Source of the DNA: Akkermansiaceae bacterium
Lineage (GTDB): Bacteria > Verrucomicrobiota > Verrucomicrobiia > Verrucomicrobiales > Akkermansiaceae
Direction: 5' to 3'
NCBI GenBank assembly: GCA_049889715.1
Contig: JBMHCW010000062.1
Coordinates: forward strand, 6,858-70,857
Length of the DNA stretch: 64,000 nucleotides
Part shown: piece after piece, positions 23,917-51,844 of the stretch
Layout: every line of letters starts with the position of its first letter
How positions within the stretch are numbered: the stretch's first letter is position 1
Position numbers and translations under genes: made by a program
The notes under the pieces: generated by a model
Seen by the model: the letters and a program-made list of their open reading frames with translations, nothing else
Told to the model about the DNA's origin: nothing
Databases searched by the model: none

Positions 23917-26022
23917 TCAAGGAAGGTATGATCTTGGCTCAAGATGTCCGAGATTCATAAAATCACCTTTCACGAGATTCCTCCACCCGAAGATCTCCGG
24001 GTGATCCGTGAGGGGTATGACCGGGACACCGAAAAGCTGATCGGTGAAGAAGGACGCCGGGAGCCGGCCTTCTTTGTTCGTGATGGTGACGGGGAAGTGG
24101 TTGGCGGAATCAGTCAGGACCCCGATTTCAATTTCCTCGAGATTGCTGGAGCGGCTTCCTTCGCGATTGTGAATGACGATGTGATGATGGGTGGCTGATG
24201 CGGTGTTGATGGAGTTGCTGACTCCGGCGGCGTTGGCCCGGTTGCCGACTTCCCAAAGGCACATGCCGAGAGCTCCCGCGCCGTCGTCCATAACGATGAA
24301 TTCGTAGGTGCTGTCTTCCTTGAGGGTGATGTCTCCCGAGCGAAGGTTACCTGCGAGGTTGAACTGGTTTCCGCGGGTGCGGACGTCGAAGCCATCGTTG
24401 ATTTGGTTGACGTTGAATTCGATGCCATTCTGGGTTTCCCCATACTGGCCGGCGGGGATGGCATCGCTGCGAGTGAGGATCTGCAGAAAGTCGTCGCCTC
24501 CGGAGAAGGTCCAACGACCTTTGATGTAGATCCCGCCGAGAGCGGCCGGGTCGTATTGGTCGCGGGTGTAGAGATGGCCTCGTCCGTCGATGCGGACATG
24601 ACCGTCTTCTTGAACCACCACCGCTCCCCCCTGCGGGATGTTGGTATTGGAGAGCCAGATGACTTTGTTCAGGGGATCGGTTTCAAAATCATCGGTGATG
24701 GGAAGAAGAGTGGGAGGGGGGAACGCCGAGCTGTTATTGGGGTCGGTTCCGGCGGAGACTTTAACATCATCGGTGAACTCATCCGAATCAGTATCCGCGA
24801 GATTGGGATCGCTACCGGTTTGATTCTCATCAAGGAACGGAAGGTCGGGATTTTCCACTCCGTCGAGGAGGCCGTCGCCATCGGAGTCGGGATTCTTGGG
24901 GTCGGTGCCGCGGTTGGTGGCATCTGTCCAGGTGTTGGTGGCGGTTTCAGAGCCATCGAGAGCGCCGTCGTCATCAGAGTCGTCGTCCAGTGGGTCGGTG
25001 AGACGGGTGAACTCCTCGAGGTTGGAGGAATTGTCGGAATCGGGATCACCAGAAGGGCCGAAATCCGGGTTGGTTGATCCGTTGTCCAGGTGAGCCCCTG
25101 CCCCGAGGTTGGTGATTTCCCAGCTGTCGGTCATGCCATCGGAATCGGTATCGTCGAAGTCGATGGGGCTGACTCCGCTGACCAGTTGATCGATTTGGGC
25201 CTGGGTGAGGACTTCCTGGTAGACGACAACGTCATCGATGAGTCCAACAAAGTTGGCTTCTCCGGTTGTGCCATTGAGGTTTCCCTGTCGGGCACCGACC
25301 ACGAAGTTGCCGCTGCCGTTGGGTCCGATTTTCGAGGTTGGTGAGCCGTCTTGAACTCCGTTGAGATAGATGGTGCCCGTATTGGTGAGGCCATCGTAGG
25401 TGAAGGTGACATGGGCCCATTCGGTGGTGTTCAATTGGGTGACACCGTAGTGATCGGCTGACCAATGCGCCTGGTGCGGGCGTCCGTTTTGGCGGAGGCC
25501 GTTGTGAATGCCTTGGACGGATTGGCCGAAAAAGAAGCGGTCTCCACTGAGTGATTCGGCCGATGGCAGAATCCAGCATGCCATGGTGTAGCTGAGGTCG
25601 TCCTGTTCGGGGAGACCGTCGCGTTTCCCGAGGAGTGAGGGCACGTCGAGACCGGAGACATTGATCATGCCTCTGCCATCAGTGGAGAATTGTCCTGCGC
25701 CGGCGGGCGAGGCACCACCGGGTGCTCCGGCAAGGCCAAAGATCACCGATCCATTGACGTCGCCAGTATAGCCGTTGCCGCTGAGGTCAGTGACGGTGAG
25801 GGAATCGGCGGGCTCGTCCAAGGGATAATAGAGAAGGGGTTCGGGCAGTTGGGCCGATGAGGCGGCCGTCCCGGTCGCGATCACCGCCAGCCGTGAGCAA
25901 GGAACCCGAGCTCCGGCGATCTGGATGATTTTGAGAGAGTGTGTGTGATTGCATTTGGTGGGCAGGAGGGTTGGAAAGCCAAGTTCAAACGAAGTGTTGA
26001 GTGAGTCTACGTCTTGCATCAA
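23917..26022 (-). CDS. Secreted LamG/concanavalin-like lectin domain protein with thrombospondin type-3-like Ca-binding repeats and a second jelly-roll domain
   Basis: LamG pattern (LSGNGYTGDVNG...SYTMACWI...WAHVTFTYDG...IYLNGV...NFVGLIDDVVVY). A run of Asp-rich repeats follows (DDTDSDGMTDSWE, DPDSDNSSNLEEF, DDDSDDDGALDG, NPDSDGDGLLDGVENPD, ADTDSDEFTDD). The N-terminus/start is uncertain: the h-region RLAVIATGTAASSAQ begins about 45 residues into the track ORF (first Met 26022). Confidence 0.8.
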   Translation of the reverse strand: MMQDVDSLNTSFELGFPTLLPTKCNHTHSLKIIQIAGARVPCSRLAVIATGTAASSAQLPEPLLYYPLDEPADSLTVTDLSGNGYTGDVNGSVIFGLAGAPGGASPAGAGQFSTDGRGMINVSGLDVPSLLGKRDGLPEQDDLSYTMACWILPSAESLSGDRFFFGQSVQGIHNGLRQNGRPHQAHWSADHYGVTQLNTTEWAHVTFTYDGLTNTGTIYLNGVQDGSPTSKIGPNGSGNFVVGARQGNLNGTTGEANFVGLIDDVVVYQEVLTQAQIDQLVSGVSPIDFDDTDSDGMTDSWEITNLGAGAHLDNGSTNPDFGPSGDPDSDNSSNLEEFTRLTDPLDDDSDDDGALDGSETATNTWTDATNRGTDPKNPDSDGDGLLDGVENPDLPFLDENQTGSDPNLADTDSDEFTDDVKVSAGTDPNNSSAFPPPTLLPITDDFETDPLNKVIWLSNTNIPQGGAVVVQEDGHVRIDGRGHLYTRDQYDPAALGGIYIKGRWTFSGGDDFLQILTRSDAIPAGQYGETQNGIEFNVNQINDGFDVRTRGNQFNLAGNLRSGDITLKEDSTYEFIVMDDGAGALGMCLWEVGNRANAAGVSNSINTASATHHHIVIHNREGSRSSNLEEIEIGVLTDSANHFPVTITNKEGRLPASFFTDQLFGVPVIPLTDHPEIFGWRNLVKGDFMNLGHLEPRSYLP

Positions 26023-26051: not shown

Positions 26052-26990
26052 ATGATCAAAGTCATTCTTCCGGTCGCTCTGCTTGTCTCGTCCTTCGTTT
26101 TTGCCGATGAACGTCCTCTTCCCAAGGTGAAGCACATGATCGACACCCATATTCATCTTTACGATACAACCCGGCCGAAGGGAGTGCCGTGGCCGCCGAA
26201 GGATGACAAGGTGCTCTACAAACCGCACCTTTCTGCAGAGTTTCACAAGGTTTCCAAACCGTCGGGACTGACCGGCGTCGTGATCGTGGAAGCCAGTGAC
26301 CGGCCTGAGGACAACCGTTGGGTTCTTGATCTGGTGAAGGGGGATGATTATTTCGTGGGACTCGTGGGCAATGTGGACCCTTATGCCGATGACTTCGCTG
26401 CTCAAGTGGCGGAGTTGAAGAAGGATCCGCGCTTTGTCGGTATTCGTGCGCGGAATGGCAGGGAAAAGAAGGCGATTGACTATGAAAATGAGACGTTCAT
26501 CGCCAGCTTGCGTGAACTGGCAAAACAGAATCTGACAGTTGATCTGTTGGTCAATGGTCAGGGGATCGGGGCCGTGAAGCAGATCGACCAGCTGGCGCGT
26601 AAAGTTCCCGAAGTCCACATCGTGGTGGACCATGTCATAGGTTATGATTTTGACGGGAAGGCTCCCCCGAAGGAGTGGGTGGAAGCGGTTGAGAAAATGG
26701 CCGAGAACAAGAACGTTTGGGTCAAGGTTTCGGGGCTTTATCAACGGAGTGTGCCTCAGCCCGCTCCGCACAAGTTGGATCACTATAAGAGCGTTCTCGA
26801 TATCCTTTGGAAGAACCTGGGCTCCGAGCGATTGATTTATGGGAGCAACTGGCCGTGCACCAAGAACAGCGGGGACTATACCAGTTTCGTGAAACTGGTG
26901 AACGAGTATTTCTCAGCCAAAGGGCAGGAGGCTTGCGAGCGGTATTTCTGGAAGAACGCCGCGGAAGCCTATCGTTTGAACCTTAAGTAA
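26052..26990 (+). CDS. Amidohydrolase-2 family (TIM-barrel metal-dependent hydrolase), with signal peptide
   Basis: MIKVILPVALLVSSFVFA, the metal motif IDTHIHLYD, VVDHV and LIYGSNWP, typical of PF04909-type lactonase/decarboxylase-like hydrolases. Confidence 0.8.
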   Translation: MIKVILPVALLVSSFVFADERPLPKVKHMIDTHIHLYDTTRPKGVPWPPKDDKVLYKPHLSAEFHKVSKPSGLTGVVIVEASDRPEDNRWVLDLVKGDDYFVGLVGNVDPYADDFAAQVAELKKDPRFVGIRARNGREKKAIDYENETFIASLRELAKQNLTVDLLVNGQGIGAVKQIDQLARKVPEVHIVVDHVIGYDFDGKAPPKEWVEAVEKMAENKNVWVKVSGLYQRSVPQPAPHKLDHYKSVLDILWKNLGSERLIYGSNWPCTKNSGDYTSFVKLVNEYFSAKGQEACERYFWKNAAEAYRLNLK

Positions 26991-27003
26991 GGGGAACGAC
27001 CGG

Positions 27004-27357
27004 CTACGTTGATTTCGCGGACTCGGTTTCGATTCGAAGGGCGTCTTCCTTGGTGGCGAGCCGGTCTTCGTAGGCCTCGATGGTTTCGGCGGCTTGCAAC
27101 CGGTCTTCAAGCTCGCTCAACCGTTTGGAAAGTTCTTCGATTTCCACAGAGGAGCCATTGGTGTTGGCAGGCTTGCCGAAAATCCAGACTGCCGAGATGG
27201 CAAGGGCTGAGGCGAGAATCACGGTCATCGGCAGATAGATTCCACCATTGACGACCTGACCGAAGATCACGCTGATGGCAAAAGCGCCCACACTGCATCC
27301 TGCGATTGCGCCAGTGGCTGCGGTCCTCGGGGCGGAATGGGAATTGGGATCACTCAT
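27004..27357 (-). CDS. Hypothetical membrane protein (2 TM) with C-terminal coiled coil
   Basis: GAIAGCSVGAFAISVIFG, LPMTVILASALAISAVWIF, then EIEELSKRLSELEDRLQAAETIEAYEDRL. Confidence 0.5.
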   Translation of the reverse strand: MSDPNSHSAPRTAATGAIAGCSVGAFAISVIFGQVVNGGIYLPMTVILASALAISAVWIFGKPANTNGSSVEIEELSKRLSELEDRLQAAETIEAYEDRLATKEDALRIETESAKST

Positions 27358-27557
27358 GATGAAATCATGCTAGAGAATCAGTGGAGAGAAGCGACTACAA
27401 GCTGATTGGCGCATTGTAGTTCGAAGGAGGCTTGGAACAAAGAGAATGTGGCCTTGTGGCATCACTTTTTGATTGTGCTCGAGCGTCCAAAAGGTGGATC
27501 CGATGAGCGACTGCCTGGAGAGGAGGAATTGATCTTCATTCGGTTCTGGAATAGATC

Positions 27558-27935
27558 TTGGCTGGGATGAGTATGACAATGGTGGCCTCGCTAAAGACAT
27601 TTGCCTTGGGACTGCCCGGGACGAAGACCGGAGTGGCGTGCGAGGGGACGGCCTTGGAGCGCGAGACGGTTCAAGTCGGTTCCAAGACCTTTCTCTTCAT
27701 GGGCGGAGGGGAACTCAAATTAAAGTTGGGGCCGAATCTTGAGGAAGCGCAGAATTGGGCAGATGATGGTTCGGCGGTGAAGACGGGCGGATCGGGTTGG
27801 GTGACGGTGATGTTGGAGAAGGCGGATGGGCCATCGAAGAAAGAGTTGGAACGCTGGGTGGGGGAAAGCTTCCGGCTTTTAGCGCCCAAGACCTTGGTCA
27901 AGCAACTGGATGAAGCGCTAAGACACTTGAATTGA
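27558..27935 (+). CDS. MmcQ/YjbR family protein
   Basis: LKTFALGLPGTKTGV...VGSKTFLFMGGGELKLKL...SGWVTVMLEK...ELERWVGESFRLLAPK fits the YjbR pattern. The start is ambiguous (TTG 27558 or ATG 27567-27579). Confidence 0.6.
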   Translation: MAGMSMTMVASLKTFALGLPGTKTGVACEGTALERETVQVGSKTFLFMGGGELKLKLGPNLEEAQNWADDGSAVKTGGSGWVTVMLEKADGPSKKELERWVGESFRLLAPKTLVKQLDEALRHLN

Positions 27936-28816
27936 TCGAGATCCTCGAAGACGGGACTCCGGCCCGGGAGATTCCGGAGTTGTCGGTGATTGCCGGGGAG
28001 ATCCTGGAATACACCGTGACGATGTATCGTGAGAAAGGTTTTGAATCGCCTTGGTTGGCCTATCTTGCGGTAGTCGATGGGAATTGTGTCGGGACCTGTG
28101 CCTTCAAGTCTGCTCCGGTGGATGGTCAAGCCGAGATTGCTTATTTCACCTTTCCGGGACGCGAGGGGCAGGGGGTGGCCACCGCGATGGTGGAACGATT
28201 GATCGAGCAGAGAACTGCCCACGATCCATCAGTGGTGTTGGTAGCGCAGACTCTTCCAGAGTCCGGGGCTTCCACCCGGGTGCTTGAAAAATCAGGATTC
28301 ATGCGGACGGGCGAACTGTGTCACTCGAGTGATGGTTTGGTCTGGGAATGGATCTTTGAGGCGCCTGGCAAAGAGAGGCGAGTCCGTGAGTTGCTGGCGG
28401 AAGATCTCGCAGAGATCGTCGAGGTGAGAGTGGCGACCTGGCACAATGAGAGTGGAGCTGAGGAACTGGAGTCCATGGGAATTACCATCGACTCGGTGAG
28501 CGCGATGTTGGAGGCAGGGAGTCATCGCGGATGGTTATGCCAGGTGGGGGATCGGATTGTCGGATTCGCGATGGGTGATCGTCGGTCAGGTGAGATGTGG
28601 GTGGTTGCAGTGTTGGAGGAATTCGAAGGCCGGGGAATCGGGAGGCGACTGCTTGCAGAGGTCGAGTCGTGGTTGGGATCGTGCGGGTGGTCGGAAGTCT
28701 GGTTGACGACTGATATGGATGAAAGTTTGAGAGCGGTTGGGTTTTATCGTCATCTCGGATGGACGGACTGGAAGTTCGAGGATGGGGATCGCTTTATGAG
28801 AAAAGTGTTGGGATGA
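27932..28816 (+). CDS. Tandem GNAT N-acetyltransferase (two acetyltransferase domains)
   Basis: Domain 1: AEIAYFTFPGREGQGVATAMVERLI...LEKSGF. Domain 2: MWVVAVLEEFEGRGIGRRLLAEVESW...FYRHLGW. These carry the Q/RxxGxG/A acetyl-CoA motif. The TTG start overlaps the upstream stop. Confidence 0.8.
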   Translation: MIEILEDGTPAREIPELSVIAGEILEYTVTMYREKGFESPWLAYLAVVDGNCVGTCAFKSAPVDGQAEIAYFTFPGREGQGVATAMVERLIEQRTAHDPSVVLVAQTLPESGASTRVLEKSGFMRTGELCHSSDGLVWEWIFEAPGKERRVRELLAEDLAEIVEVRVATWHNESGAEELESMGITIDSVSAMLEAGSHRGWLCQVGDRIVGFAMGDRRSGEMWVVAVLEEFEGRGIGRRLLAEVESWLGSCGWSEVWLTTDMDESLRAVGFYRHLGWTDWKFEDGDRFMRKVLG

Positions 28817-28932
28817 CCGAAAAGAAAGGAACGACCTGGAAGAAGATCGTCCTGATCGTGGTGGGAGGTTTTCTTCTTCTGGGGGCTGTGGGCTATGGGG
28901 GCTCTATGTATCGGGGTTTTGTCGCTATATGA
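28813..28932 (+). CDS. 39-codon ORF encoding the membrane-anchor segment of a signal-peptidase-I-like protein (below the ORF-track size cut-off)
   Basis: My translation is MTEKKGTTWKKIVLIVVGGFLLLGAVGYGGSMYRGFVAI*. Its ATG overlaps the GNAT stop (ATGA) and its stop overlaps the next ATG (ATGA). See the finding. Confidence 0.4.
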   Translation: MTEKKGTTWKKIVLIVVGGFLLLGAVGYGGSMYRGFVAI

Positions 28933-29342
28933 TTCCGGCCAGAAACATGGAGCCGACGATGCCGGCCAATGAACAAGTCATTGCCCGCTTGACTCCCAAT
29001 TATGCGGCACAGCTGAGTCGGAACGAGGTGGTCGTCTTCGAGTTTGAATCGAAAAGGGCCACCGAAGTCGGGGGGCTTACCAGCACCTATGCCATGAGGG
29101 TGATTGGATTTCCCGGCGATGAAATCAGGTTTTCTCGGGAGGGCCTGTGGAGCGATGGGGAGGAGTATCTCACTCCTAGTGGGAAAGTGGTTTCAATGGC
29201 GACCCTGCCTTCACAGAAATTCGTGGTGCAGGAAGGTGAATACTTCATGATCGGAGATAATCCTCGGGTGTCTCTGGATAGCCGATTTTTCGGCACCGTC
29301 AGGGCGAGTGAAATCAAAGGGAAGATTCTCTTTGTGGAGTGA
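28929..29342 (+). CDS. S26 signal peptidase I homologue, catalytic Ser and Lys both substituted (predicted inactive)
   Basis: IPARNMEPTM compared with canonical IPSxSMxPTL. RNEVVVFEF compared with RGDxVVF. YAMRVIGFPGDEI compared with xxKRVIGLPGD. YFMIGDNPRVSLDSRFFG compared with GDNRxxSxDSR. The boxes are colinear with LepB, but the nucleophile is Asn (AAC 28944..28946) and the general base is Met (ATG 29094..29096). Confidence 0.7.
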   Translation: MIPARNMEPTMPANEQVIARLTPNYAAQLSRNEVVVFEFESKRATEVGGLTSTYAMRVIGFPGDEIRFSREGLWSDGEEYLTPSGKVVSMATLPSQKFVVQEGEYFMIGDNPRVSLDSRFFGTVRASEIKGKILFVE

Positions 29343-29465
29343 GGAACTATTTTTGAAGTTTTTTGGAATAGAATCGAGTGGGGTTTCTCTTATCGAGCGA
29401 TGCCCTCCTTCATGGGTTGGCGTCGCTCAAAGCACCTCAACCAACAACAATGAAAAATCGATTCG

Positions 29466-30206
29466 ATGACAAAAATGAAAGGCCTTGTCTTGGGCCTCCT
29501 CGCGACGGGCTCCGCCAGTGGAGAAACGATGATCAAGGTCCAGTTTGAAAGCAAGGGGCCGACAGGAAACGCACCGGTCGCCGGGGTGTTTCATGATGGA
29601 AGTTTTGGAAACTTCGCAACCGGAAGCGCCGCTTCCGCAGGGCTGGAGACTCTCGCCGAAGTCGGGAATCCCGCTCCTTATCTGGCTGAGGCTGGATTCA
29701 ATGGCGGGACCAATGGTGCTCCCTTTGCCACAGGAAATACAGTGGACTTCATTGTCACGGTGGACCCGGTCAACACATCGTTCAGCTATGCCTCCATGGT
29801 GCCGGCCAGTAACGATTGGTTTATCGGCAACTCTTCTGCGGTCGATGTGTCATCCCTGGTGGGCGGCATGAATGGCACTACGTTGAGCTGGGACGTCACC
29901 CGGGTCTACGATGCCGGAACCGAGTTGGAGGATTTTGCCTTCTCGCCTGGAAACGGAATGCTCGGAGTAACCACTCCGGCCGACCTCGCCGGAGGAACAG
30001 ATCAGAACGGCGTGGTTTCCCTGGTGACCGGACCGGATCCCTTCGCGGCTTTTGCCAATCCCTCGCCAGGATTTGATTCCACCGCGTTTGACTTCACCCA
30101 ACCGGATACGGTGCTGGGAACATTTACCCTGACGGTGGTCCCCGAACCTTCGACTGCGATGATGGGGCTCTTGGCAATCCTACCCATGCTTCGTCGTCGA
30201 CGATAG
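29466..30206 (+). CDS. Spondin_N-like domain protein with PEP-CTERM anchor
   Basis: VAGVFHDGSFGNFATGS...FSYASMVPASNDWFIGNS...YDAGTELEDF resembles bacterial spondin_N domains. The C-terminus VVPEPSTAMMGLLAILPMLRRRR is PEP-CTERM. Confidence 0.75.
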   Translation: MTKMKGLVLGLLATGSASGETMIKVQFESKGPTGNAPVAGVFHDGSFGNFATGSAASAGLETLAEVGNPAPYLAEAGFNGGTNGAPFATGNTVDFIVTVDPVNTSFSYASMVPASNDWFIGNSSAVDVSSLVGGMNGTTLSWDVTRVYDAGTELEDFAFSPGNGMLGVTTPADLAGGTDQNGVVSLVTGPDPFAAFANPSPGFDSTAFDFTQPDTVLGTFTLTVVPEPSTAMMGLLAILPMLRRRR

Positions 30207-30331
30207 TCTGATGAAATGACGCCACGGCTCCCTGACGAGCGGTCGGGGAGTCGTGTTCTTGTGCCCGCGTGGTGTAAAGGAGAGCGGGATTTGTAGAAGT
30301 CAGCGGGAGAGGATGAGGTCATTCTCTACTC

Positions 30332-30600
30332 ATGAAATGTGCTCAGTGTCAGGGCACCAACCTCATCGACAACGTCCGCTTGTGTGAAAATGGAGCGGGG
30401 GTTCGGGTATATAGTTATCGTGAGCCGGAGGCCATGATTTTCAAGGGGCCATCTCAGCTTCCATACGAGCCAGGGTGTGCGCTGACTGTGGTGACACGAC
30501 ACTGTATGTCAGCCATCGTGATGCCCGGAAGCTGTCATACGGTGAAGGGTTGCCGGACTATTCCACGGCTCAGGACACAACCACTGCGGAATCGTCCTGA
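30332..30600 (+). pseudogene. Small zinc-ribbon protein, apparently frameshifted (second CxxC knuckle lies in another frame)
   Basis: Frame 1 reads MKCAQCQGTNLIDNVRL...EAMIFKG, then R/T/P-rich nonsense. The frame reached by adding 1 nt reads ...ARVCADCGDTTLYVSHRDARKLSYGEGLPDYSTAQDTTTAESS* (stop 30598..30600). A G4 run at 30445..30448 is a plausible indel site. Confidence 0.35.
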
Positions 30601-31622
30601 TGACTGAGCACGCCGATGTCGGCCACGATGTGGGCTCCGTTGGCGAGAAGAATTTCCTGGGCGTCGTGGAGGTGGTCGGGATGCACGGCGAGCAGAAGAC
30701 CACCCGAAGTCTGGGCGTCGGCAAGGAGAATTTGTAGTTCCTTGGGAACATCCGAAGCAAAGGTGGTGAATTCCTTGGCGAGCTCGAGGTTCTGGCGCGA
30801 CCCTCCCGGGACACAACCTTGTTTGATGAATTCGAGAACTTCGTGATCGATGGCAGGCACTGCGTGGGAATCGATGCGCGCGGTGAGATGCGACTCGCGG
30901 CACATATGGCTGAGGTGCCCGAGCAGGCCGAAGCCGGTGACGTCGGTTCCGGCGCGGGTCAGTCCGGTGGTGGCCAGGGCGGCTCCGGCGGTATTGAGGG
31001 CGGCCATTTCCTTGGCGGCCTTGGCTGCCAGCTCCTCGGAGGCGAGGCCTCGTTTGATGGCGGTGGAAATGATGCCCGTTCCGAGAGGTTTGGTCAGGAC
31101 CAGATGATCGCCGGCGGTGGCTCCGGCATTTGAAATGACCCGGTGAGGGTTGACCAGTCCGGTGACCGAAAGGCCGTAGAGAGGTTCGGGGTTTTGGACG
31201 GTATGACCCCCGGCAAGAGCGCAGTTGGCTTCGGCCACCTTGTCGGCGCCTCCTTTGAGAATCTGGTTGATGGTCTCAAGCGAAAGTAGATCGGTGGGAA
31301 CGGCCACGATATTCATGGCCGTGACCGGCTTGCCACCCATGGCGTAAACGTCCGAAAGCGAATTGGCGGCCGCGATTTGGCCGAAGAGATAGGGGTCGTC
31401 GACGATGGGCGTGAAGAAGTCGAGGGTCTGGACGAGGGCGAGATCGGGGGCGACGCGGTAAACAGCGGCGTCGTCCGAGCTGGCGGAACCAATGAGAAGG
31501 TCGGGGTCCTGGATGTTGGTGATGCCACGCAAGACTTGCGTGAGTTCGGCTTGGCCGAGCTTCGAGGCTCACCCTCCGCAAGAGGCCATTTCGGTCAGGC
31601 GTTTGATATCTTCGCGACTCAT
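30570..31622 (-). CDS. selD: Selenide, water dikinase (selenophosphate synthetase), selenocysteine-containing; in-frame TGA at 31569..31571
   Basis: The track ORF (30570..31532) lacks the N-terminal catalytic loop. Upstream in the same frame I read ATG(31622) MSREDIKRLTEMASCGG-TGA-ASKLGQAELTQVLRGITNIQDPDLLIG... The U-A-S-K aligns with C17-G-C-K20 of E. coli SelD. The rest (DDAAVY, DFFTPIVDDPYLFGQIAAANSLSDVYAMGG, AGGHT, LTKPLGTG, TDVTGFGLLGHL) is canonical SelD. Confidence 0.9.
31525..31560 (-). promoter_or_regulatory. Candidate bacterial SECIS hairpin(s) downstream of the selD UGA
   Basis: mRNA +12..+28 reads GCUCGGC-CAA-GCCGAAC. mRNA +29..+47 reads UCACGCAA-GUC-UUGCGUGG, an 8 bp stem with GU in the apical loop. 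I cannot tell which one, if either, is functional. Confidence 0.3.
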
Positions 31623-45310: not shown

Positions 45311-47059
45311 ATGGCTGACCAACAGTCGATCATCGCACTCAACATTGGCTCCCAGCGTATCGCGATGGGGGTCTTCTCACCGACCAAATCGGGTCTGACT
45401 CTGAAAAAATACGGAGCGACCAGCATTCTGGCCGATCCTGCCACCGAGGCCGCCCGCGTTCCCCAGATTCAGCTGGCGATCAAGGAGCTGGCGCAGAGCC
45501 TAAAAGTCGGAAGCCAGAAGGCCGTCTACGCTCTTTCCGGACAATCGGTTTTCGTTCGCTTCGTCAAGCTGCCTCCCCTCGAAGCCGAGGACATGGGTGA
45601 GCTGGTGAAGTTTGAAGCCCAGCAGAACGTTCCTTTCCCCATCGATGAAGTGGTCTGGGACTGGGAAAAGCTCGAGACCGAAGGAATCGACAACGAAGTC
45701 GTTCTCGTGGCCATCAAGTCGGATTCGCTCAATGATCTCAACTCGGTGGTGTCCGAGACCGGACTGGGAACCCAGTTGGTCGACTGTGCGCCGGTGGCCC
45801 TTTACAACGCCTACCGTTACAACTACCCCGAGGCCACGGAGTGCGCTCTCCTTCTCGATGTCGGAGCCAAGACCTCCAACCTCATCTACGCCGACGGCAG
45901 CAAGTTTTTCACCCGAGGGGTTTCCATTGGTGGAGCTGTTCTGACCAGCGCGATTGCCAAGGAATACAACGTCTCCTTCGCTGAGGCTGAAAACAGCAAG
46001 CTGACCTCCGGTCTGGTGACCCTTGGGGGAGGCCACGCCGGCCAGCTCGACGAAGCCACCGCGGCCATGGGTACGGTGATTCGTAATGCCCTCGGACGTC
46101 TCACGGCCGAGATTCAGCGGACCAACACTCTCTTCCGCAGCCAGCAGGGCGGACGGGCTCCCGAGAAGATCCTTCTCGCCGGTGGCACCGCCAATCTTCC
46201 TTACCTCCGGGAATTCCTCCAGGAGAAGCTCAACCTCCCGGTGGAAACCTTCAATCCCCTCCAGCGGATTTCCGTGGGCAAGGGCGTGGATGTCGATGCC
46301 CTCGCCCGCGAAGCCCATCAAATGGGTGAGCTCGTCGGTTTGGGACTCCGGGCTGCCGAAAAGTCCGCCATCAAGATCGATCTCGTTCCCGATGCGGTGC
46401 AGGCCGAGCGCGATATCAACCGTCGCAAGCCCATTCTCATCGCTGCAGCGGCCCTCTTCCTCGGGGGACTGGGCGCCTGGGCCGGACTCAAGGCCCTTTC
46501 GGTGAACGATGCCAAGATGCACCTCAAGGATCTTGAAGGAGAGTCGGTGACCCTCGGGCCGCCGGCCAACAAGATCGAGCGCCTTCTCAAGCAGGAGGAA
46601 GAAACCGGAAAGATGATCAAGGCCTATGCCAAGGCCGAGGAGAATCGCCTCCGGATCGTCAATCAATGGAATTTCATCGCCAAGCACTTCGTGAGTGAGG
46701 TTGCCTGGATTACCGATTTCGAACCGCGCACCAACTTCAGCATGGATGGCGGCGGTTCCAGCGAGCCGGTGATCGATGAAAGCTTCTCCACCAATCCTTA
46801 CGGAAAGTCCTCGATCATGAACGAGGTGACCTCGGCCGACAGTGTCATTCTGCGTGGTCTTCACCTCAACAAGCAGAACGAAGTGACCAACCTGGTGAAG
46901 ACCCTCCGTCTCTCACCGGCCCTCAACTTCAAGTTCAACGACAAGGAGATTCCGGATAGTTCCATCATCAAGACGAACCAGGCCGCTGCCGAGGAGGGTT
47001 TTTATGCCGCTCCCTTCGAGCTCCTGATTCCTCTCAACAATCAAATTCAAGTTAAGTAA
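45311..47059 (+). CDS. PilM-like actin-fold ATPase fused to a PilN-like transmembrane/periplasmic region (Amuc_1101-type)
   Basis: IIALNIGSQRIAMGVF, LLDVGAKTSNLIY and ILLAGGTANLPYLREFL are the actin-fold phosphate/adenosine motifs of PilM/FtsA. These are followed by DLVPDAVQAERDINRRKPILIAAAALFLGGLGAWAGL, a PilN-type anchor, plus a 170-aa periplasmic part. Confidence 0.85.
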   Translation: MADQQSIIALNIGSQRIAMGVFSPTKSGLTLKKYGATSILADPATEAARVPQIQLAIKELAQSLKVGSQKAVYALSGQSVFVRFVKLPPLEAEDMGELVKFEAQQNVPFPIDEVVWDWEKLETEGIDNEVVLVAIKSDSLNDLNSVVSETGLGTQLVDCAPVALYNAYRYNYPEATECALLLDVGAKTSNLIYADGSKFFTRGVSIGGAVLTSAIAKEYNVSFAEAENSKLTSGLVTLGGGHAGQLDEATAAMGTVIRNALGRLTAEIQRTNTLFRSQQGGRAPEKILLAGGTANLPYLREFLQEKLNLPVETFNPLQRISVGKGVDVDALAREAHQMGELVGLGLRAAEKSAIKIDLVPDAVQAERDINRRKPILIAAAALFLGGLGAWAGLKALSVNDAKMHLKDLEGESVTLGPPANKIERLLKQEEETGKMIKAYAKAEENRLRIVNQWNFIAKHFVSEVAWITDFEPRTNFSMDGGGSSEPVIDESFSTNPYGKSSIMNEVTSADSVILRGLHLNKQNEVTNLVKTLRLSPALNFKFNDKEIPDSSIIKTNQAAAEEGFYAAPFELLIPLNNQIQVK

Positions 47060-47080
47060 ACACCTTTCAGACAATTCATT

Positions 47081-48088
47081 ATGACTTGGTTCAAAGAAAA
47101 CAAGTTCCTCGGAGGTCTCATCGTGGTGACGGGCCTTTTGGCTGCCGTGATCATCTACATGGGTCTCCAGTTCAGCTCCTCGCTTGAGGAAACCCTCGAG
47201 GAGGTCGCCACGGCCGAAGCAAAAGACCGGAAGTGGAGAAACCTCGATCCGTTTCCCACTCCCACAAGTGCCGAAGCCAAGAAGGACAGCCTCAAGACTC
47301 TCCTGACGGACGCCAAAGCCACCCAGGAGGTGATCCTCGCCTTCCGTCCTGAGAGTGTGGACAACATTCCACTGACCGAATTCTCGGCCGGCCTCGAAAA
47401 GTCGGTGGCCGAGATCCGGGACCTCTTCGATGGGCAAAACGCCTTGCCTGAGCGCTTCAATCTCGGATTCGAGACCTACGCCTCAAGTCCTCCCAAGGAA
47501 AGTGCCACTGGTGTCTTGAACTACCAGCGCGGAGCCCTCGACTGGCTCTTCCGTGAGCTCGACGCCGCCGGCATCAAGCAGGTCGTCAACCTTCACCGTG
47601 AGAAGCTTCCCGCCGAAAGCGGGGTGGATTGGAACGACGAGCGGGCCATGAAGCAGTTTGCAAATGCCAATCGCTCCCGTAGCAGCAGCTCGAAGGACAG
47701 AAAGTCGCGGGGACGTCGTTCCGCCAAGGCCGAAGTCCTGCCCGAAGTGGCTCATCGCATGCCTTTCGAGATCACCTTCAAGGGACCCGAGCCGACTGTT
47801 CGCAAGTTCCTCACCAGCGTGGCCAATTCCGACCAGTATTTCATCGAGGCTCGCGTGGCCCGGGTGAAGAACGAGGCTCCCATTCCTGAAAAGCCCCGCG
47901 GGGCCAGTGAAAAGAAGGAAGGGGACGACTCGGCGGCCTTTGGTCCCATCGAAGGAGACGAGCCCGAGGAAGGTGCGCCCTCCTCCCAGATTCTCAACCG
48001 GATTTCCGGTGGTGAGGACCTGACTGTTTTCCTGCGTGCCGAAATCCTGCTCTTCAAGGATAGCGCCAAGTTTGCGGAAGTGAAATAA
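47081..48088 (+). CDS. Amuc_1100-like pilus-associated protein (occupies the PilO position)
   Basis: N-terminal anchor MTWFKENKFLGGLIVVTGLLAAVIIY. The blocks LGFETYAS, MPFEITFKGPEPTVRKFLTSVANSDQYFIEARVARVKNE and LTVFLRAEILLF parallel the Akkermansia Amuc_1100 sequence as I recall it. Confidence 0.65.
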   Translation: MTWFKENKFLGGLIVVTGLLAAVIIYMGLQFSSSLEETLEEVATAEAKDRKWRNLDPFPTPTSAEAKKDSLKTLLTDAKATQEVILAFRPESVDNIPLTEFSAGLEKSVAEIRDLFDGQNALPERFNLGFETYASSPPKESATGVLNYQRGALDWLFRELDAAGIKQVVNLHREKLPAESGVDWNDERAMKQFANANRSRSSSSKDRKSRGRRSAKAEVLPEVAHRMPFEITFKGPEPTVRKFLTSVANSDQYFIEARVARVKNEAPIPEKPRGASEKKEGDDSAAFGPIEGDEPEEGAPSSQILNRISGGEDLTVFLRAEILLFKDSAKFAEVK

Positions 48089-48107
48089 CTCCAACTCACA
48101 ACACACA

Positions 48108-49151
48108 ATGTCCTGGATTAAAGAAAATTATCATATCGCCGCCCTCGGAGGCGGAGTCCTCGTCCTTGCCGGGCTGGGGTACACCGCCTACGCCGCCAAG
48201 CAGGAAGTGAACGAAGGCTTTGCCACTCCGGTCGACGGAAGAGGGAAGACCACCACTGTCGCCAATGGCGACATTCTGAGCACGTTGGATGACTCGCTGA
48301 AGACGGAGAACCCTGTGGTGATTTCCACGACTCCGACCAATCGTCCGGTTCAGCTGTTTTCGAGTGTCGATCTCTTCATCGAAGACGGGAAACCCAACGA
48401 GCTGAAGGATCTCCTCACGATGAAGGATAACGTTCATCCTCCCATTCCCAACAAGTGGTGGGTCGACAACATGCTCGATCCGACTTGGTCTGATTCTCCA
48501 CAGCGGGACAAGGACGGGGATGGATTCTCCAATTTGGAGGAATTCGAGGCCAATACCGATCCCAACGACGAGAAGAGTTTCGGTGATCTCATCACCAAGC
48601 TCAGAGTGGCTGAAGTGAAATCCACGATCTGGCGTCTTGAGTTCAACTCGGTCCTCGGAAACGGTTTTCAGCTCAATCTTCTCTTCAAAGAGCCCGGTGG
48701 TCCGGTGCAGAACAACCGCATGGGTGCCAACGATGCCATCAATCCCGGAGATCTGTTCTTCAAGGAAGGGGTCGGCAAGGACCGCTTCAAGCTCCTTAAG
48801 GTCGAGCCTCGCAAGATGAAGACATCGACAGGGGAGAAGGATGTGCCTTTCGCTTTTGTTGAAGATCAACTTGAGAACAAGAAGGGTGATGTCTATGAGC
48901 TGCAGTTCGGGATGAAGCAGGGAGAATTGCTCAAGAGCACCCGCTATGACCACACTGTGGTCTTCTATCTCGATGCCATCGGAGAGTCCGGAAACAAGTT
49001 CGAGGTGGTCGAAAATGGCACCTTTGCCCTTCCTTCAAGTGGCTCCGAAAAAAGCTACAAACTGACCGAAGTGAAGCTTGGTGCTGACAATCAGCCCGAA
49101 TCCGTGGTGGTTGAAGGACCAAACGGACCAGTCGAAATCCCCGTAGAATAA
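48108..49151 (+). CDS. Membrane-anchored protein at the PilP / Amuc_1099 position, with TSP3-like Ca-binding motif
   Basis: Anchor MSWIKENYHIAALGGGVLVLAGLGYTAY and the motif DKDGDGFSNLEEFEANTDPND. The rest is unrecognised. Confidence 0.55.
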   Translation: MSWIKENYHIAALGGGVLVLAGLGYTAYAAKQEVNEGFATPVDGRGKTTTVANGDILSTLDDSLKTENPVVISTTPTNRPVQLFSSVDLFIEDGKPNELKDLLTMKDNVHPPIPNKWWVDNMLDPTWSDSPQRDKDGDGFSNLEEFEANTDPNDEKSFGDLITKLRVAEVKSTIWRLEFNSVLGNGFQLNLLFKEPGGPVQNNRMGANDAINPGDLFFKEGVGKDRFKLLKVEPRKMKTSTGEKDVPFAFVEDQLENKKGDVYELQFGMKQGELLKSTRYDHTVVFYLDAIGESGNKFEVVENGTFALPSSGSEKSYKLTEVKLGADNQPESVVVEGPNGPVEIPVE

Positions 49152-49252
49152 AGGAAAACACTCAAACGGGTCAGGAAAAATTTAGAAATTTAAAGGTTTC
49201 TGAAAAAAAGCTTCCCAGACCCCCCACTAATCAACGAATATTCAACCAGATC

Positions 49253-51844
49253 ATGCAGAAAAGACACACACACCTTACCCATCGCACAATGTTTGCCCTC
49301 GCGGCGCTCGTTGTGTCCCCCGTCGCTATCGCCGAGGAGGGATATGGAGACGGTCTTGCGCAGCAGGAGATGATCCGACGTCAACAAAACGTCATCACCT
49401 CCGATGAGCTTCGCGACGAAGGCCGTAAAGCATACGCGGAAGGGGATTATGAGACGGCCGTCTCCAAGTATCGTGCCGCTCTCGACATTCTCCCTTACGG
49501 AACCGCCACCGCCGATCGCCGTCAGGTTCTCAATGACCACCTGCAGGACGGATCGCTGGCGCTGTCCCAAACATACCGCCGGACCGGAAAGTATGAGGAA
49601 GCCCGCGAGCTTCTGACTGCTGTCGATAAGGCCGACCCTGGTAACATGGTTGCCAAGAAGGGACTCGAGTATCTCGACGATCCCATTCGGACCAACCAAG
49701 CCCTTGATTACGCCCATACTCAGGACGTCGACAAGGTTCGCCGCCATCTTTACACCGGTGAAGGTTTCTACGATCTTGGCCGCTACGACAAAGCGGAAGA
49801 GGAATTCAAGCAGATCCTTCGCATTGACCCATACAACAAAGCTGCCCGCCGTTGGCTGGAGCGTTGTGCTGCCATCAAGTCCGACTATTACCGCTCTGCA
49901 TACGATCACACTCGTGCGGAAATGCTCGCTCAGGTGGACGCAGCCTGGGAGCTGGCCATTCCACCTCTGGTGTCGGTCGGCCCTGGCCCTGGCCCCGGAC
50001 CCATCATCGCGGGTGGAGAAGCTTCCATTGCCGGCAAGCTGAACACCATCATCATCCCTGAGATCAGCCTCAACAACTCCACCGTGGAAGAAGCGGTGGA
50101 ATTCCTCCGCCTTCGTTCGGTGGAGCTTGATCCTGAAGGAACCGGCATCAACTTCGTGGTGCGCACTCCGAAGGTGGTTGGTGAAAGTGGTGAAGACCTT
50201 GGTGACGGGGGAGACCTCGGCGCAGCTGACGATGCCCTTGGCACCGGAGCTAATCCTAACGCCATTCTCATCAAGCAGCTCAACCTCAAGAACGTCCCGC
50301 TTCGTGTGGCTCTCCAGTATATCTGTGAAGAAGCCAACCTCCGCTACAAGGTGGATGAGTTCGCGGTGACTTTGCTTTCCCTCGGTGACGAAGACGAGGC
50401 TGACATCGTGCAGCGTCGTTGGACCGTTCCTCCGACCTTTGAGACTTTCCTGAACACCACCGGTGGTGGTGGAGACGGCGGACCAGCTGAGATCGATCCA
50501 TTCGGTGGAGGCGGTGGTGACGACGACGGGGGCATCGCTCCACGTCTTGGCATTGTCGATCTCCTCAAGAACGCCGGTGTATCCTTCGGTCCTAACGCTT
50601 CGGCTACTCTTCTGTCTGCTTCTAGCACGCTCATCGTGCGGAACACTCCGACCCAGCTCGAAGTGATCGACGGAATCGTGAAGGCCGCCCAGAACAATAC
50701 CCCTCGCCAGATCCGGGTCACCACGAAGTTCGTGGAAATCAACCAGGAGAACAACGAGGAACTTGGATTTGACTGGATCGCCACTCCGTTTGGCTTCGGT
50801 AGTAACTACTTCTTCGGTGGTGGCACCGTGGGAAGCGGAAGCACCCGGACCAACCAGGACTTCATCAGCCCTGTTGACCGCGTCAACATCCCGGGGATCC
50901 CGGCCAACCCTGCTCAGGCCGTTTCGGGAATCGTGACTGCCGGTAACCGTAGTGGTGCCGCCGCGATCGACCGTAACAGCATCGATGCCATCCTGAACAA
51001 CCCACAGCGGACTGCCCAGCAGGCCAACGTGGCTCCCGGTATCCTTTCCCTTACCGGTCTCTTCAGCAGTGGTCAGGTTCAAATGATCATGCGCGGTCTT
51101 TCCCAGAAGAAAGGCGCCGACATCATGACCGCACCAAGTGTGGTGGCTCTGCCCGGACAAAGTGCAACGATCGAGATCATTCGTGAGTTTATCTACCCAA
51201 CCGAATACGAACCCCCCGAACTCCCCAACCAGGTTGGCGGTAACATCGGTGGAGGTATCGGTGGTGGCCTCGTCGGTGGTGGCGGTGGTGGCGGGTTCCC
51301 CGTGACCCCGGCAACTCCTTCGGCCTTCGACACCAAGAACACTGGTGTGACACTCGAGGTGGAAGCCCAGATCGATGCCAACGACAGCATCATTGAGCTT
51401 CGCTTCACGCCGACCATCGTTGAATTCGAAGGTTTCGTGAACTACGGTAGCCCGATTACCGCTCCGGCAACGGACGCCCTTGGAAACCCTGTGCAGATCG
51501 TGATCACCGAAAACCGCATCGAGATGCCCGTCTTCTCGGTCCGCAGCGTGAAAACCGGTCTTACCATCTATGACGGCTACACCGTGGCTGTGGGTGGTTT
51601 GATGCGCGAGGATGTCCAGAGCGTGGAAGACAAGGTGCCCATTCTTGGTGATCTGCCTCTCGTCGGACGTTTGTTCCAGACCAAGGCTGAGAACCACATC
51701 AAGAGTAACCTGATTATCTTCGTGACTGCTGAGATCATCGACGCCACAGGCCGTCGGGTGAACAGCGGAGGTGAGGCAGCAACTGGTGCCATCCCCGACA
51801 TCGGAGCTGGTGATACCGGAGTTCTCCCGACTCTCGACCAGTAA
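49253..51844 (+). CDS. Secretin (PilQ/GspD family) with N-terminal TPR region (Amuc_1098-type)
   Basis: TPR-like helices (GDYETAVSKYRAALDI, GKYEEARELLTAV, GRYDKAEEEFKQILRIDP). The secretin domain reads IRVTTKFVEINQENNEELGFDW...VPILGDLPLVGRLFQTKAENHIKSNLIIFVTAEII. A Gly-rich insert GGNIGGGIGGGLVGGGGGGGF is present. Confidence 0.9.
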   Translation: MQKRHTHLTHRTMFALAALVVSPVAIAEEGYGDGLAQQEMIRRQQNVITSDELRDEGRKAYAEGDYETAVSKYRAALDILPYGTATADRRQVLNDHLQDGSLALSQTYRRTGKYEEARELLTAVDKADPGNMVAKKGLEYLDDPIRTNQALDYAHTQDVDKVRRHLYTGEGFYDLGRYDKAEEEFKQILRIDPYNKAARRWLERCAAIKSDYYRSAYDHTRAEMLAQVDAAWELAIPPLVSVGPGPGPGPIIAGGEASIAGKLNTIIIPEISLNNSTVEEAVEFLRLRSVELDPEGTGINFVVRTPKVVGESGEDLGDGGDLGAADDALGTGANPNAILIKQLNLKNVPLRVALQYICEEANLRYKVDEFAVTLLSLGDEDEADIVQRRWTVPPTFETFLNTTGGGGDGGPAEIDPFGGGGGDDDGGIAPRLGIVDLLKNAGVSFGPNASATLLSASSTLIVRNTPTQLEVIDGIVKAAQNNTPRQIRVTTKFVEINQENNEELGFDWIATPFGFGSNYFFGGGTVGSGSTRTNQDFISPVDRVNIPGIPANPAQAVSGIVTAGNRSGAAAIDRNSIDAILNNPQRTAQQANVAPGILSLTGLFSSGQVQMIMRGLSQKKGADIMTAPSVVALPGQSATIEIIREFIYPTEYEPPELPNQVGGNIGGGIGGGLVGGGGGGGFPVTPATPSAFDTKNTGVTLEVEAQIDANDSIIELRFTPTIVEFEGFVNYGSPITAPATDALGNPVQIVITENRIEMPVFSVRSVKTGLTIYDGYTVAVGGLMREDVQSVEDKVPILGDLPLVGRLFQTKAENHIKSNLIIFVTAEIIDATGRRVNSGGEAATGAIPDIGAGDTGVLPTLDQ

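Follow-up and report, generated by a model that had tools for sequence, protein, structure and literature searches.

A signal-peptidase-like gene with a replaced catalytic dyad, probably pseudogenised by a single-G loss in a marine Akkermansiaceae lineage

Layout of the locus

The window analysed in this work is a stretch of 64,000 nucleotides from an Akkermansiaceae bacterium (Verrucomicrobiota; contig JBMHCW010000062.1 of assembly GCA_049889715.1), and it carries a gene related to signal peptidase I (peptidase family S26) that is divided between two reading frames. The parts of this gene and the two genes flanking it lie on the plus strand. A mini-open reading frame (mini-ORF) of 39 codons at 28813..28932 (MTEKKGTTWKKIVLIVVGGFLLLGAVGYGGSMYRGFVAI*) begins with a Lys-rich cytoplasmic tail, followed by a hydrophobic transmembrane helix. 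A domain ORF of 137 amino acids at 28929..29342 encodes an S26 domain, and the two ORFs overlap in the tetranucleotide ATGA at 28929-28932. A preliminary description of this DNA, made from its letters, had reported such a membrane anchor in a separate 39-codon ORF sharing ATGA with a LepB-like domain ORF, and we found both ORFs as described. The S26 reading frame itself spans 28902..29342; it matches the profiles PF10502 and TIGR02227, and its fold matches those of SpsB, SipA and LepB. Three conserved boxes can be placed in it. AAC at 28944..28946 encodes Asn where the catalytic Ser would be (box B, IPARNMEPTM), ATG at 29094..29096 encodes Met where the catalytic Lys would be (box D, YAMRVIGFPGD), and box E, a structural motif of S26 proteins, is intact (GDNPRVSLDSRFF, 29253..29291).

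A signal peptidase I domain with both catalytic residues replaced

The 137-residue product matches signal peptidase profiles much better than expected by chance: it scores 84 bits against Pfam PF10502 (Peptidase_S26; E 1.6e-23, cut-off 22.9) and 88.8 bits against NCBIfam TIGR02227, signal peptidase I (curated cut-off 47). In a phmmer alignment with S. aureus SpsB (4wvh), ARNMEPT falls on GESMDPT and YAMRVIGFPGD on YVKRVIGVPGD; therefore, Asn stands in place of the Ser nucleophile and Met in place of the Lys base. Both the homology to LepB and the two substitutions, as first read from the letters, hold in this alignment. The same program gave E values of 4.3e-10 for SpsB, 9.6e-9 for the B. anthracis signal peptidase, 1.5e-6 for LepA and 1.8e-6 for SipA. 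An AlphaFold2 model of the intact allele, the metagenomic protein P0001 introduced below, reaches a pLDDT of 90.8 and consists of a helix at residues 7-33 plus a beta-rich domain. When this model was compared with the PDB by Foldseek, the top 26 matches were all signal peptidase I or SipA, the best being SpsB (E 2e-8), S. pyogenes SipA (4n31; TM 0.74-0.76 on target) and E. coli LepB. The profile, the fold and box E are those of signal peptidase I, whereas the Ser nucleophile and the Lys base are missing. From the established Ser-Lys chemistry, we infer that the intact protein would be unable to cleave by the S26 mechanism. With eight S26 proteins as tblastn queries, no second S26 locus was found within the 64-kb window.

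One could imagine that the protein is an active peptidase with other catalytic residues, as in the Ser/His enzymes of the ER type and the SipW type. Some relatives do have Ser together with His (P0026) or one dyad member left, and the residues on either side of boxes B, D and E are well conserved. However, there is no Ser, Thr or Cys at or beside the nucleophile position (P-A-R-N-M-E-P), the base position is occupied by Met, and close relatives vary between S, V, A, G, D or N at the nucleophile position, unlike a catalytic residue. We consider peptidase activity of this kind extremely unlikely.

The reading frame breaks in a G-run upstream of the overlap

A 5.8-billion-protein index contains a sole close relative of the gene product, P0001, which is 97% identical and encoded on the JGI metagenome contig L001. 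Its 176 amino acids equal the two window pieces taken together (39 + 137); it is encoded by one ORF, and both Asn and Met are kept. Alignment of the DNA revealed five Gs (G5) at 28897-28901 in the window versus six (G6) in L001, and the G6 data sets described below carry the inserted G after 28896. In the window the domain frame stays open 5' of 28929 to at least 28800, reading ...GLYVSGFCRYMIPARN. Therefore, the frames part in the G-run, 30 nt 5' of the ATGA overlap. In intact alleles the sequence across the real junction is ...GAVGYGG-LYVSGFRRYMIPARNMEPT. Of the mini-ORF, residues 1-30 are the true N-terminus, and residues 31-39 (SMYRGFVAI) result from reading on out of frame. The ATGA overlap just marks where the shifted frame meets its first stop, and the ATG at 28929 encodes Met40, an internal residue of the intact protein. 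The frame change had initially been placed at this overlap (28925..28932), with YRGFVAI joined to MIPARN, and that junction has to be given up.

The G5 frameshift thus separates the anchor from the S26 domain in the window. The two are contiguous in L001 and in X5, X8, X9, X11, X14, X15 and X17, as well as in loci of distant relatives (L004, L025, L026 and L028); indeed, the gene is a single continuous ORF in all relatives, near and far. The split might still be functional, either by translational coupling at ATGA or by a -1 ribosomal frameshift in the G-run that restores the full protein. The stop of the first ORF overlaps an ATG, the second ORF is in the -1 frame relative to the first, the acetyltransferase gene upstream is likewise ATGA-coupled, and the region is transcribed, with contigs from RNA runs covering 28957-29411. 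Against this, the ATG is that of Met40 and the overlap only the first stop of a shifted frame, and a domain begun at 28929 without signal or anchor has no route to the periplasm, where S26 folds act. Programmed frameshifting was rejected as improbable, as the site has no X XXY YYZ slippery heptamer (UAU GGG GGC has a U ahead of the G-run) and every relative encodes one ORF. A functional two-piece gene is, in our view, very unlikely.

Distribution of the deletion across data sets

Tract lengths were taken from the assembled contigs of public runs placed on the region (seawater and algae metagenomes), plus L001. G5 was found in the window and in four samples (X1-X4) of one study only. Eight data sets, which belong to the same species and come from six other studies, have G6, namely X5 and X9 (study P2), X8 and X14 (P3), X11 (P4), X15 (P7), X17 (P8) and the JGI contig L001; the depth in X9 is about 720x. 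Across 26976-31553, X1 and X3 are 12-13 single-nucleotide polymorphisms (SNPs) away from the window, yet both have G5; therefore, the deletion occurs on more than one closely related haplotype, independently assembled. Moreover, tract length co-segregates with four linked SNPs (28920, 28993, 29062 and 29152) in 12/12 data sets covering the run.

These data bear on whether the window sequence is a sequencing or assembly artefact, that is, whether the genome truly has G6 and an intact ORF and G5 is a homopolymer undercount. The restriction of G5 to one study would fit an artefact, and so would the nature of the two indels that, along with 66 substitutions, distinguish the window from L001 over a common stretch of 10.6 kb: both are one-G losses in G-runs (28897-28901 and 30445-30448) and both break an ORF. 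However, the deletion is carried by four separately assembled samples, on haplotypes 12-13 SNPs from the window. Homopolymers of at least five nucleotides in the 10.6-kb stretch comprise 15 G/C runs with a length of five, one G/C run with a length of six and 25 A/T runs. The only one whose length departs from L001 is 28897-28901; the other 40, among them the remaining 14 five-nucleotide G/C runs, agree, and the second indel concerns a run of four Gs. The RNA libraries of the G5 study are paired Illumina, a chemistry that does not undercount runs of five or six Gs. Two amino acid substitutions in the same lineage, R37C and I114S (see below), fit a truly inactivated gene. A general homopolymer error was rejected on the agreement in run lengths with L001, and we regard an artefact at this one run as improbable. 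The single-G deletion is very probably real and inherited, and the sequencing indel allowed for in the preliminary description is disfavoured by the shared deletion on haplotypes differing in SNPs and by the absence of any other homopolymer difference in the 10.6 kb.

Close to one end of L001 (L001:28-80, window 28710-28762), L001 has a G at 8 of the first 9 sites where it differs from the window, no more than 43 nt from that end. Such a pattern suggests a contig-end artefact, which raised the difference count of the acetyltransferase gene in the comparison of substitutions given below.

Another way to account for both tract lengths is phase variation, in which the G-tract would act as a reversible contingency switch (G6 on, G5 off). 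In its favour, the broken run is the region's longest G-run, the species has both tract lengths, and SNPs of the G6-type haplotype (28993T and 29062T in X27) turn up in RNA contigs from the G5 study. In addition, no RNA contig crosses 28863-28953, which would be expected of a mixed site that interrupts the assembly graph. Contingency tracts usually have 7-8 or more repeats, though, and G6 is short for one. The linkage of tract length to four SNPs in 12/12 data sets points to an inherited allele rather than to a rapid switch, and the off lineage has also gained R37C and I114S. Phase variation is accordingly judged quite improbable.

Probable decay of the gene and of the surrounding block

We compared substitutions in the S26 domain with those in the surrounding genes, relative to L001. 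The domain has 5 nonsynonymous and 1 synonymous differences in 438 nt and the seven neighbouring genes together have 14 nonsynonymous and 25 synonymous ones in 9.3 kb, a contrast that does not reach significance at 0.05 (Fisher test, p 0.07). The four SNPs that separate all G5 from all G6 data sets (28920, 28993, 29062 and 29152) are all nonsynonymous (4/4). One of them turns Arg37 of intact alleles into Cys in the window lineage (R37C, TGT at 28920..28922). This conserved basic position has R or K in 80/134 homologues and Arg in 7/7 closest relatives, and Cys is outside its eight commonest residues. Another gives Ser for Ile114 of intact alleles (I114S, AGC at 29151..29153), a lineage-specific, non-conservative substitution in a beta-strand; the position has I, V or L in 148/156 homologues and Ser in 0. 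For this copy, the loss of one G and the substitutions R37C and I114S agree with the earlier suggestion of a decaying gene with a 1-nt deletion.

The second indel affects another gene, 1.5 kb from the S26-like gene. The window lineage has four Gs at 30445-30448 where L001, X5, X8, X12 and X28 have five, and this loss breaks an 89-codon ORF for a CxxC...CxxC zinc ribbon (window ORF 30332..30607) that is intact at L001:1651-1920.

Structural variants of the same region were seen as well. Contigs of three metatranscriptome runs of the G5 study (X26-X28, depth 8-15) join position 27694 directly to 29408, skipping 1713 bp (27695-29407) with most of a YjbR-like gene, the acetyltransferase gene and the S26-like gene. 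The join falls at a 9-bp direct repeat, CTTCATGGG, with copies at 27695-27703 and 29408-29416. It was absent from the DNA-run contigs examined, and it probably reflects a co-occurring strain with a microhomology deletion; such a variant loses the S26-like gene and retains the downstream spondin-domain gene. In X5 and X9, the YjbR-like ORF (27558..27935) shows an in-frame deletion polymorphism of 204 bp (window 27681-27886), the deleted form in X9 having a depth of 550 versus 197 for the full form. Farther upstream, near the 5' end of a large minus-strand ORF (23917..26022), X5 and X8 have a 10-nt insertion, ATGGTGAAAG, after 25963, and X5 is without one base at 25892.

Because the frameshift, the degenerative substitutions, the second broken gene and deletion variants of the same block occur together, the block of YjbR-like, acetyltransferase and S26-like genes looks dispensable in this marine verrucomicrobial population.

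A family of small S26 proteins with variable dyad positions

Searching 1.84 billion cluster representatives exhaustively with phmmer yielded 9915 matches, and the two catalytic positions were followed through relatives of P0001. Among these, P0003 (57-59% identity to P0001) likewise has N at the Ser position and M at the Lys position. The full ORF on L004, with a continuous anchor and domain in 177 amino acids and 47-49% identity to P0001, has S and M. P0005 (35-38%) has A and H, P0007-P0009 (31-41%) have G and K, and P0153-P0162, a tight subfamily of ~163 amino acids (30-34%), combine S, V, A, G or D with K. Conservation of the N/M pair had been proposed as a check; the pair is kept in P0003, and the other relatives named here have the different pairs just listed. 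At least one dyad residue is missing in 73/149 aligned domains among the best 150 of the 9915 matches, and in 23/29 among the best 30.

The remainder of the fold is retained. Boxes B, D and E and a juxtamembrane LYxxGFRxYRVP motif are conserved in the family, G148, D149, S154 and D156 are invariant across 60 homologues, and the residues around the replaced dyad are kept family-wide (I-P-x-x-N-M-x-P-T and Y-x-M-R-V-x-G). Selection was estimated by the Nei-Gojobori method. Between the two N/M genes, on L001 and L007, dN/dS is ~0.13, a rough value since dS is saturated (pS 0.73). Between two Ser-less genes, on L026 and L028 (P0158 and P0279, 87% identity), dN/dS is 0.15. At the level of the family, the retention of N/M in a 57%-identity relative and the low dN/dS (about 0.13) support the retained pseudo-peptidase that the preliminary description had listed among its options.

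A FastTree phylogeny built from 141 domains after masking of the dyad columns has poor resolution, with a support of 0.65 for the clade around P0001. In this clade 27/36 members are without a dyad residue. The tree shows about 32 state changes versus 47 in shuffles. As a rough indication, the tree suggests repeated dyad losses. Judged by sequence, the family is best described as a long-lived, selected, apparently non-catalytic derivative of signal peptidase I.

Two relatives, P0006 and P0010, have two tandem S26 domains each. P0010 combines an Ala/Lys first domain with a Ser/Lys second one, while in P0006 Lys is gone from both domains and Ser also from the second. A search of genome contigs for related loci returned two distant S26 genes (28-32% identity) and no orthologue, and a search of metagenome contigs with an alignment of the three closest proteins gave relatives of 25-31% identity among the matches listed, which added no gene context from an orthologue.

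Genomic context

The S26-like gene follows a double-GNAT acetyltransferase gene (27932..28816), whose TGA stop overlaps the ATG of the S26-like gene in ATGA at 28813-28816. On the other side, 123 nt past its end, lies a spondin-domain gene (29466..30206; 95.6 bits against NF038123, cut-off 40). The C-terminus of its product, VPEPS-TM-RRRR, has the PEP-CTERM form, with a Pfam PEP-CTERM score under the cut-off. Between the two genes there is no terminator-like site; one is found after the spondin-domain gene, at 30223-30255. The preliminary description had noted that the S26-like gene sits upstream of a PEP-CTERM/spondin cargo gene. The spondin-domain gene is indeed there, but a dedicated link to PEP-CTERM cargo was rejected, as this gene order is not conserved in relatives.

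The neighbours of the relatives differ: unrelated membrane proteins on L004, small unknown ORFs on L033. No partner gene is common to this locus and the contexts of P0004, P0005, P0158, P0279, P0162 and P0161. On L025 (3999-6007), the gene for P0005 (Ala/His) is directly followed by three T2SSG pseudopilin genes. On L026 (6001-6495), L028 (5759-6253) and L031 (4122-4616), S26-like genes that lack Ser and keep Lys (~163 amino acids) are part of a conserved gene row, comprising an SDR, an FAA-hydrolase, an aldehyde dehydrogenase, the S26-like gene and an IlvD/EDD dehydratase. This row looks like a sugar-acid catabolic operon, an odd setting for a signal-peptidase fold.

Elsewhere in the window, at 45311-51844, there is an Akkermansia-type type IV pilus cluster with an Amuc_1101-family PilM-like protein (737.6 bits) and an Amuc_1098-family secretin (1048.7 bits). 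Both matches exceed the equivalog cut-offs, and a PVC-type haem-binding domain also occurs in the window. The pilus cluster places the organism in the Verrucomicrobiota.

Comparison with known S26 proteins

The intact protein shares with LepB and SpsB (MEROPS S26A) the common fold, the framework of boxes B, D and E (IPxxxMxPT, RVxGxPGD and GDNxxxSxDSR) and, in intact alleles, a single N-terminal transmembrane anchor. It differs from them in having Asn/Met for Ser/Lys, and in the window a change of frame comes between anchor and domain; compared with E. coli LepB, it is also much smaller (176 amino acids). In MEROPS, the non-peptidase homologues of S26 are members without one or both catalytic residues, a bookkeeping label with no assigned function. 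The present protein agrees with this class in belonging to S26 by sequence and having lost the catalytic residues.

S. pyogenes SipA, a signal-peptidase-like factor of pilus assembly, has an S26 fold in which the dyad is replaced (Asp48/Gly85); it has no peptidase activity and a conserved peptide-binding cleft (PMC4049620). SipA/LepA (4n31, 4k8w) and the intact protein have in common an S26 fold with both dyad residues replaced, a similar size and a single anchor. The replacing residues are different ones, Asn/Met here, and the sequence kinship is no closer than to active enzymes (E 1.8e-6 versus 4e-10 for SpsB). SipA belongs to a sortase-pilus island of a Gram-positive bacterium, whereas the gene studied here comes from a diderm verrucomicrobium, where it follows a GNAT gene and has neither a sortase nor a pilin next to it. 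Streptococcal SipA is thus the closest known parallel, without specific kinship in sequence or context. A literature search for inactive S26 homologues in Verrucomicrobia or Planctomycetes gave nothing specific, nor did the papers searched describe the radiation of small S26 proteins in diderms, an absence that is no proof. Non-catalytic S26 homologues are already known, as SipA/LepA and as the MEROPS class, and this locus adds one, caught as a young pseudogene.

Discussion

Overall, we suggest that the locus probably holds a long-lived, selected, non-catalytic signal-peptidase-like gene, with Ser/Lys replaced by Asn/Met, that has been pseudogenised recently in this lineage by the loss of a single G. 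Its ancestor would have been one gene of 176 codons for a type II membrane protein with a Lys-rich tail, one helix and an S26 fold facing the periplasm. The Asn/Met state would be old and selected, and would belong to a radiation of small (about 160-177 amino acids), single-helix S26 proteins whose dyad positions appear free to vary, in contrast to the conserved remainder of the fold. The lineage of the window, a marine Verrucomicrobiota population represented by one study, may then have lost one G by slippage in the G6 run. This loss would separate the anchor from the domain, and the shifted frame would stop at a TGA overlapping Met40, giving the appearance of two coupled ORFs. R37C and I114S, presumably degenerative, would have accompanied the frameshift. 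The 137-residue piece, if made, would be anchorless and hence cytoplasmic and non-functional. A decaying copy with a 1-nt deletion, a sequencing indel and a retained pseudo-peptidase had been offered as exclusive options at the outset; the first and the last turn out to hold at different levels, the copy and the family, and the sequencing indel is the one that loses ground.

Several points weigh against this interpretation. The tract lengths come from contigs only, and a chemistry-specific undercount of G-runs in the one study that has G5 is conceivable. In the window lineage, each of the two indels is the loss of a G from a G-run. The substitution contrast and the dN/dS of the N/M pair carry the statistical limits given with them. 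As for function, no conserved gene neighbourhood indicates a binding partner, and the role proposed is an analogy with S. pyogenes SipA. By that analogy, the intact protein would most likely bind peptide segments that are extended or resemble signal peptides, at the surface of the membrane and without cutting them, as has been proposed for SipA.

For the window itself the practical result is modest: the split most likely stems from a genuine pseudogenising mutation, so that no new gene architecture is involved. The intact form passes the TIGR02227 cut-off, and annotation pipelines would call it "signal peptidase I"; it is therefore an example of the over-annotation of pseudo-enzymes. Many of the nearest S26 relatives have lost the dyad, and such loss can go together with purifying selection over long periods. 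The idea derived from SipA, of a signal-peptidase fold serving as a non-cutting peptide binder, would be extended beyond the pilus islands of Gram-positive bacteria. More tentatively, the intact gene may stand for an undescribed, widespread family of small single-helix S26 pseudo-peptidases in diderms (Verrucomicrobiota and others), under purifying selection while the nucleophile position drifts (S, A, G, N, D, V). Such proteins might be receptors, holdases or regulators that handle signal-peptide-like segments at the membrane surface, perhaps in competition with the substrates of LepB or as their escorts. Different subfamilies may have been recruited to different operons, namely the apparent sugar-acid catabolic operon on L026, L028 and L031, the pseudopilin genes on L025, and the unit of GNAT and spondin/PEP-CTERM genes here. 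The large radiation of dyad-less small S26 proteins in diderms may merit a dedicated study.

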